From Ginglymostoma cirratum (Eukaryota): a DNA stretch of 64,000 nucleotides. This document shows, one piece after another, positions 57,280 through 59,079 of this stretch (within the stretch, counting starts at the first letter, position 1; every line of letters starts with the position of its first letter). The notes under the pieces were generated by a model. The model was not told the origin of the DNA. It worked only from the letters and a program-made list of their open reading frames with translations, and did no database searches. The position numbers were made by a program, and so were the translations under genes. Location of the stretch: contig JAHRHZ010000222.1 in assembly GCA_024137785.1 (NCBI GenBank), positions 34,784,463-34,848,462 on the forward strand. Direction: 5' to 3'.

Positions 57280-57807
57280 GATTTCGAGAAACATGTTTGA
57301 TGTGCTTCACGTATGGCAATAATATCTTTTCTGAGTTGGGGGGGGGGGGCAAAACTGCACACAGTATCCAGGTACAGACAATCAAGCTCCAATTCAAGTG
57401 AAGCAAGACTTCACCACTCCACGTTCAAATCCTCTTGCAATTAAGGATAACATTCTATTAGCATTCTTAATAATTTGCTGTACTTGCATGTTAGCCTTCA
57501 GTGACCCATTGGCAAGGAGACCTTAGTCCCTTTCTACACCTATACTTTCTAATCTCTCAAGGCTTAAGAAATAGGATATTTCTTAAATAACCTCAAATTC
57601 TTCCACATCTGCCATGTTCCTGCTCATTCAACAAGCCTAGCCAAATCCTGCTGAAGCTGCGTTACATCTTCTTCACACCACACATTCCACTTAGCTTTGT
57701 ATCATCACAAATTTGGAAATATTTGCAAGTATGTCTGCGTCTCTAAATTATTGATATAAATTGTGAACAGTTGGGGTCCAAGTACTGAACCTGGTGGTAC
57801 CCCACTA

Positions 57808-58037
57808 GAGATAACAAGGTGTAGAGCTGGATGAACACAGCAGGCCCAGCAGCATCAGAGGAGCAGGAAAGCTGACGTTTCGGGCCGAGACCCTTCTTCA
57901 GAAAAGTGTTCTGAAGAAGGGTCTAGGCCCGAAACGTCAGCTTTTCTGCTCTGCTGATGCTGCTTGGCCTGCTGTGTTCATCTAGCTCTACACCTTGTGA
58001 TCTCAGATTCTCCAGCATCTGCAGTTCCTACTATCTC
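57808..58037 (+). mobile_element. Complete PLE pLTR fold-back element (family A): 96-nt inverted arms, 5-nt loop, 33-nt tail
   Basis: Arms 57808-57903 / 57909-58004 (about 7 mismatches); tail 58005-58037; 15-bp TSD tggtaccccactaga (57795-57809 / 58038-58052); hammerhead cores on both strands (57874-57901 minus, 57911-57938 plus). Confidence 0.92.
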
Positions 58038-59079
58038 TGGTACCCCACTAGATGCAGCTTGCCAATACAAGAATGACCCATTTATTCCAACTCTGTCTTG
58101 TGTCTGTTAGCCAATCATTTATTCATGCCAATACATCATCTTCTGTAAAATGTGCTTCAATGAATGCATCAACAAATCCTTGTTCAACACATCCTGGGAG
58201 GAAAAGCAATGAAGGAGCATCACTAAGGCTCAAAGTCTTTACTGGAACCTGATCACTCAAGCAGCATATTCACTGGAAATAGCGGAACTTACTGAGGGGT
58301 AACTGATTTCTGAGGAGGCTCTAATCCACCAAACTAGACTCAGGTAAACTATGCAATTTCCCCGAACTAGATGAATAGGCTAACAGGAATATTAGTATTG
58401 CACTTTTATTTGCAACAGAAGCAGTAATGGCTGCTCAACATGAATCATCAGTTTGAACCTCCATGATTCTCAGCAAAGTAGACAAGTAATCATGGAAAAT
58501 GCAAGAACATGATCAAACATGTATTTGTCTTGCTGTTGTAAGGTTTCTGGTACTTGGCCTTAACTCTCAGTGCAGCACAATATATCCTGGAAAAGACCAG
58601 CAGAATAGCAGTGGTGCATTGCATGTTCCAAAACATGGCCACGGAAACAGGCTGTATTTGTATACGAGGTTCAGCAGCAACAAACAAAACCGCAGACGCA
58701 GAAAGAGGAGAAATTACCATAAATTTCAAGGAATAACATGAACTCACAACATAGTTTAAGTTCACTTAAGGCCTTTCCTCATGCTGAATGATAACTATTA
58801 TCTACAACCCTCCCGCCTTCCAGGAATTCATCTGTTATGACAACTCCTTATCTGGGAAATATTTATTTTGAAAGAAAACAACAGCTGCAAAGCATAAGTA
58901 GATAATTTGCATCTTTATTTCAGCATCATAAATATGTGGTATGTGTTTAATGCAATGTGCTACTGGAATTTCTACTATGTGAGACCTAGTTGTGCAGGTG
59001 AGGATACTGGCAGCATTCCAACCCACAACAAGTCCCACTCCTCTACAACCCCTAGGCTTGCTGACCTATATTCAATCTG

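Follow-up and report, generated by a model that had tools for sequence, protein, structure and literature searches.

Priming from both cut strands as the probable origin of a Penelope-like hairpin in the nurse shark genome

A 230-base hairpin in the nurse shark Ginglymostoma cirratum was analysed within a window of 64,000 nucleotides (assembly GCA_024137785.1, contig JAHRHZ010000222.1, positions 34,784,463 to 34,848,462 of the forward strand). The hairpin is probably composed of two head-to-head copies, of about 100 and 130 bases, of the leader of a Penelope-like element (PLE), made once at this place by priming from both cut strands. A broader reading is rated somewhat above even: the inverted pLTR and one-sided tail typical of PLE insertions would result from obligate twin priming, each nicked strand having a fixed start site of its own on a single capped RNA, and the leader cDNAs would run off in the manner of 'strong-stop' products and then be end-joined or jump template, which would also build partial tandems. 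The focal hairpin is an ordinary dead stub, itself unremarkable in kind, and its value lies in the family statistics on mechanism and not in the individual copy.

Positions in the element are counted from +1, the first base of the right arm (window 57909). The hammerhead core begins at +3, with a predicted cut after +30, and -2 and -3 denote the A and C immediately upstream of +1 in full copies. The left TSD copy, recognised by comparison within the window sequence, occupies 57795..57809, and its last 2 nt are common with the left arm. The left arm (57808..57903, minus strand) is an inverted copy of leader positions +1 to +96 without the tail, and arm alignment together with the ends of other copies places its outer end at the +96 site. 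Copy comparison divides the loop (57904..57908) into one templated nucleotide (left arm position -1) and 4 nt of filler. The right arm (57909..58004, plus strand) aligns as a sense copy of +1 to +96 and is followed by a 33-nt tail (58005..58037, plus strand; +97 to +129), which, judged by copy ends, is the stretch separating two fixed ends. The right TSD copy (58038..58052) matches 57795-57809 perfectly. The two 96-nt arms are 93% complementary around the 5-nt loop, and the predicted fold has a z-score of -23, with none of 200 shuffles equally stable. Arms, loop, tail and a perfect 15-bp TSD had been described in the sequence-only reading, and all are present. The TSD shares 2 nt with the left arm, and its opening 2 nt are identical to what follows the tail in the element; because 2 nt at each end also match the element, 15 bp is an upper bound. 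Loose ends of contigs of guessed RNA status, with no piece spanning the locus, cluster at the outer boundaries of the hairpin (57807-57809 and 58038-58039).

Arm and tail were shown to be the pLTR/5' leader of an abundant PLE encoding RT and GIY-YIG domains. In the window, where arm and tail match about a dozen places, a longer copy of the same family (37140..37998, plus strand, left boundary approximate) was recognised by domain and copy comparison; it contains the GIY-YIG coding end, a pyrimidine-rich 3' UTR, the hammerhead, the arm and the tail, thereby connecting the hairpin with the coding element. Another partial arm (+32 to +96) lies in direct orientation at 37998-38077, 14 nt behind the tail of this copy. 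At longer loci, RT plus a C-terminal GIY-YIG domain were found in one frame, in an ORF contiguous with the repeat; Pfam placed GIY-YIG above the cut-off and RVT_1 below it (E 7e-6 to 2e-5) in the parent loci. The GIY-YIG domain search of the 4.36 Gb genome returned 97,275 first-look candidates, a figure that is not a copy number. Locus L181 (2122-6054) has the order UTR, core, ORF, UTR, core, that is, the same end sequence before and after the ORF in a partial-tandem pLTR. From this order, and from a likely start codon about 40 nt past the tail, arm and tail are assigned to the part of the pLTR that forms the 5' leader of the next unit. The linker of the parent ORF (P0001) contains C-x4-C-x2-C, described as a Neptune-type feature (PMC8557442), and by this motif the parent appears Neptune-like.

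The same layout had been reported to recur at 1-120, 18655, 23172, 57074 and 62991. All five places hold fold-backs (the second and fourth placed at 18653 and 57064 here), but their layout is not that of the focal hairpin. In the fold-back at 1-120 (L144) the left arm is interrupted by an N gap and the intact arm is without a tail, and those at 23172 and 62991 each enclose a gap of 400 N. In the motif scan, the focal hairpin alone among the listed sites had a core on each strand; 18653 and 62991 showed a single core, on the minus strand, and none was found at 23172 or 57064. The fold-backs at 23172, 57064 and 62991 are flanked by duplications of 10, 8 and 7 bp, respectively (raw lengths, for which there is no null), and on the same basis no duplication of at least 7 bp was found at 18653. 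The shared left-arm start seen across copies is genuine and corresponds to the +96 end common to many of them. Two further PLE-end families make fold-backs in the window: one (18653-18893 and 62991-63615) has its own hammerhead with a 4-8-bp helix I and the same arm-plus-tail fold-backs, and the other, older one lies at 57064-57280. All three N gaps of the window (23269-23668, 40907-41306 and 63056-63455, 400 N each, a size that is probably nominal) fall within PLE fold-backs; because such hairpins coincide with assembly gaps, short-read assemblies count too few of them. Fragments at 8973-9398, 20478-20894, 41516-41962, 42462-42857, 47352-47864 and 61742-62416 resemble CR1/L2-type LINE ORFs. 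A long zinc-finger exon at 29788-33171 (minus strand) matches ZNF423 (2mdg_A, E 1e-31). The focal hairpin lies about 25 kb 5' of this ZNF423-like exon and may be intronic, in which case it would form a 96-bp double-stranded RNA.

The sequence-only reading had left two origins for such hairpins, a PLE insertion product and a non-autonomous hairpin retroelement. The second, in which one 230-nt unit is transcribed and re-inserted by the PLE enzyme, is very unlikely, although an exact inner-end pattern yielded at least 1,495 similar fold-backs genome-wide (none with the reversed-pattern control) and PLE enzymes can act in trans (PMC3846280). Unique loops and inversion points had been named in advance as the observation that would speak against a propagating unit, and this is largely what was found. 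In a sample of 52 fold-backs (the first 50 listed of the 1,495 and two loop matches), 49 loops were distinct; a few simple loops do recur, one 5-nt loop occurring three times. The focal loop has exact matches at only three places, the other two of which show the opposite tail side and different diagnostic subfamily bases, and its combination with its tail side is unique among these matches. Inversion points range from -192 to beyond +90, and the lengths of the arms grade into one another, reaching at least 590 nt. At non-CpG sites the two arms of an element diverge by 8.1%, against 8.4% between copies of the same subfamily, which argues against homogenisation and against selection on pairing. 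An identical 14-nt deletion between short direct repeats, probably due to slippage, was seen in single arms of L114, L115, L123 and L142. The focal hairpin thus does not look like a self-propagating unit. Its shape and the high copy number would also suit a DNA-transposon MITE, an identity given almost no credence here and already refuted by the long TSD of variable length (10 to 17 bp) and by the parent element: the inverted repeat stops short of the right end, leaving the 33-nt tail outside, and the arm is contiguous with the RT/GIY-YIG ORF. The first of the two origins, a PLE insertion product, is supported and can be made more precise.

The outer ends of the copies are concentrated at two sites. 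Among incidental copies, counted without matches shorter than 45 nt or below 80% identity, 43 of 95 have their outer end at +94 to +99 and another 25 at +127 to +129; in unpaired copies the two sites are used about equally (22/51 and 21/51). Head-to-head pairs combine them. For pairs untargeted for the tail (n = 73, after removal of pairs in contact with N and of the 10 among 83 that a tail-bearing query had fetched), ends were classed as +92 to +102 or +124 to +147; 45 pairs joined +96 to +129, one was tail/tail, none was +96/+96 and 27 had an end elsewhere (P ~7e-13 against independent choice). Most of the 73 came from inner-end-anchored patterns, by which the overlap at the inner end is biased and the outer ends are not. 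A TSD of 10-16 bp was present in 23 of 27 mixed pairs (null 4/500), and the range over copies was 10-17 bp. Solo copies had a TSD of at least 10 bp in 7 of 88 cases and, in a second sample, in 6 of 27 (12 of 27 at 11 bp or more with a wider window that lacks a null), a difference from the pairs that is no more than suggestive and carries no weight here. Two exceptions were noted: L172, a long inverted +96/+96 pair without an obvious TSD, and L110, a short pair with the tail on both sides. L182 (+92/+92) was set aside, its flanks being mirrored too, as in an assembly artefact; in L182, L174 and L215/L216, segments are mirrored or duplicated with near-identical flanks, and these are probably artefacts of assembling inverted repeats. 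The tail imperfectly repeats, in direct orientation, the ~30 nt before it: as high a score was reached by 39 and 27 of 5,000 shuffles, and by 93 of 5,000 in the second PLE-end family. This resemblance may explain why there are two similar start sites.

Some pairs are asymmetric. The inverted arm of L227, L231 and L244 consists of hardly more than the tail, beside a second arm that spans -3 to about +95; both lie within one TSD and overlap by 2, 9 and 15 nt, respectively. L260, L273 and L216 have the reverse asymmetry, so either arm can be the short one. Since the fold-back of one cDNA cannot supply sequence which that cDNA lacks, two priming events are required. L227, L231, L244 and L268 weigh against copy-back, in which a single cDNA, or an antisense template, would be copied after folding back on itself and the tail would be what remains once the endonuclease has trimmed one end. 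The explanation published for head-to-head PLE junctions is self-priming from an antisense template (PMC3846280), the tail has been ascribed to resolution of an intermediate, and resolution by the endonuclease could make it one-sided (PMC8557442). Some junctions are indeed perfect or near-perfect palindromes, with no filler in 8 of 52, and the arms share subfamily labels in 30 of 35 pairs (shuffled mean 6.5; the other five disagree, and 18 of 53 pairs with a short arm were dropped from this comparison). Yet most junctions carry filler, of at least 7 nt in 27 of 52, and the +96 end is also used by unpaired copies. The element end is repeated in 12 of these 27 long fillers (shuffles: mean 2.2, maximum 8), as expected of end-joining or slippage. 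Private variants shared by the two arms were not in excess (5 against 3.3, P 0.22), in a comparison that has no power because divergence within elements equals that between them. Copy-back is accordingly rated improbable, though less so than spread as a unit.

Inner ends are also not random. Of the at-risk incidental copies, in a sample that includes the partners of targeted loci, 36 of 65 end at -6 to +1, a rate of 0.079 per base where other positions show 0.002-0.012. When only the strictly unbiased sample is counted (664,000 bases, 354,800 of them N), the inner hotspot takes 8 of 24 uncensored ends. The hotspot is weaker genome-wide than in the local sample: 5,926 copies were counted as stopping at -2/-3, after a filter that loses about 30%, and 20,224 as reading on into the UTR. 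The earlier description of the hairpins as extreme 5' truncations therefore needs amending, since the ends pile up at a spot that behaves like an RNA 5' end. A G precedes the start in 35 of 60 loci (26% expected), compared with 21 of the 69 non-C bases found at truncations elsewhere (P 0.002, Fisher test), and does so for -3 and -2 starts alike (18/30 and 17/30). Among copies continuing into the ORF, 17 of 30 start at -5 to +6. The inner-end site also resembles an initiator. Because inner ends pile up there with an excess of preceding G, a capped transcript start 2-3 nt upstream of the hammerhead core is inferred; in L1-driven insertions a copied cap leaves an extra G (PMC2912911), and Penelope transcription is described as starting inside the pLTR (PMC2377424).

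Twin priming could hold while the inner hotspot reflected an RT pause or a repair hotspot at the edge of a C-rich tract and not the RNA 5' end, a variant considered unlikely but the least so of the alternatives. It would fit the read-through of most genomic copies and a short inverted repeat that flanks the C-rich tract and could fold with the hammerhead core (L181). The G excess before both start positions, the initiator-like site and the intra-pLTR start of Penelope transcription count against it, as do ORF-bearing copies, which begin at this position, often with another copy behind them that begins there as well. In L187, L188, L189, L192, L194, L200-L203, L205-L207 and L210-L213, a leader with 400-760 nt of ORF is directly followed by a second leader from near -3, which looks like template jumping from the RNA 5' end to an interior site.

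On both strands of the focal hairpin the motif scan found CUGAAGA-A-stem II-GAAA-CG-UC, as a minimal type I hammerhead core at 57874..57901 (minus strand, 2-bp helix I) and another at 57911..57938 (plus strand, 3-bp helix I, predicted cut after 57938). Each strand has a core because both arms reach the shared inner-end spot. The claimed core on each strand is thus confirmed, with a contiguous helix I of only 2-3 pairs; the core, bulged base, stem II and ACGU are present, and helix I has 4 bp in the copy at 37873 against a class criterion of 4-5 bp. The back-to-back motifs lie on opposite strands, where they cannot act jointly in one transcript, and within the proposed mechanism they would be passengers. 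The Rfam search of the focal hairpin gave no hammerhead family match; its microRNA matches scored below the gathering threshold, reflect the generic hairpin shape and were rejected. The predicted probability of hammerhead stem II is ~0 in the fold-back RNA versus 0.17 in the solo leader, so that the ribozyme is predicted to be locked within the hairpin, a further point against a self-propagating unit; the solo leader had no unusual folding stability (z 0.8 and -0.3). No pile-up of 5' ends was found at the ribozyme cut site, with 3 of 113 ends at +29 to +33. The first bases of the core in L181 (2424-2460) have a 7-nt complement about 25 nt further upstream, with which a read-through RNA could sequester the core; an RNA starting at -2/-3 could not.

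The steps proposed for the two-strand origin are as follows. The PLE transcript would start 2-3 nt before the hammerhead core and be capped, and the endonuclease would cut the two strands about 13-16 bp apart, as the TSD lengths indicate. One 3' end would prime at +129 and that of the opposite strand at +96, probably on the same RNA. Where priming occurred on the leader, which stands first in the transcript, the two cDNAs would run off the RNA 5' end after about 100-130 nt, and their ends would be joined with variable filler. The focal hairpin would be the symmetric case, in which both cDNAs reached the RNA start.

The hairpin layout is already published for PLEs. EN+ insertions are described with an inverted 5'-truncated pLTR, a one-sided 30-40-nt tail and a TSD (PMC8557442; Pen2a_Av in PMC3846280; PMC2377424), all of which were found here, and the elements also agree in the head-to-head arrangement, a putative minimal hammerhead and a parent with RT and C-terminal GIY-YIG. 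Compared with the insertions in these sources, the focal hairpin has no coding sequence and both its arms stop just before the hammerhead; the TSD is 10-17 bp here and 8-10 bp as cited for rotifer PLE copies, and the copy number here is in the thousands. Minimal PLE hammerheads reported in PMC4209133 include motif pairs 100-700 bp apart on opposite strands. The protein of the Anolis PLE Poseidon_Ac (PAc) is reported to nick and extend both strands in vitro, with uncut RNA and with initiation at two internal sites, one on either side of the tail (PMC11167929). The shark copies are similar in that two internal start sites bound the tail and hammerhead cleavage does not seem to be needed, but the PAc sites lie inside the ORF and those observed here in the non-coding leader, ~40 nt before the likely start codon; the main text of PMC11167929 describes neither use of one site per strand within one insertion nor run-off at the RNA start. 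As in L1 twin priming (PMC2912911), the second target strand would prime internally, giving an inverted segment inside one TSD and a cap-derived extra G. In L1, as described there, the second site is variable and the segments do not overlap, whereas in the shark copies the two sites are constant, with 33 nt between them, and the near-complete overlap of most copies produces a palindrome. With non-LTR retrozymes (bioRxiv 10.64898/2026.07.22.740005) the hairpin has in common that it is non-coding, PLE-derived and equipped with a type I hammerhead motif. Retrozymes are described there as head-to-tail tandems with same-strand ribozymes, while the focal copy has its two units facing head-to-head, each strand with a single core that is predicted to be sequestered; it was on these grounds not identified as a retrozyme.

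A literature search, in which few subscription papers or Repbase reports were covered, found nothing on shark PLE hairpins, PLE twin priming, coupled two-site use or leader run-off, and the coupling of the two start sites was not found in the literature. The origin of inverted pLTRs and of the one-sided tail is described as unresolved for PLEs in PMC8557442 and PMC11167929. Annotation of the focal hairpin as a MITE, a microRNA hairpin or a double-ribozyme element would be wrong. The 45:1:0 pairing, the non-overlapping pairs and the cap-like G lead to predictions that are testable in the existing PAc in vitro system. If obligate twin priming is true, it would take the place of the published explanation, in which self-priming occurs from an antisense template, and the nurse shark genome would contain a ready-made record of PLE insertion in its thousands of mini-hairpins.
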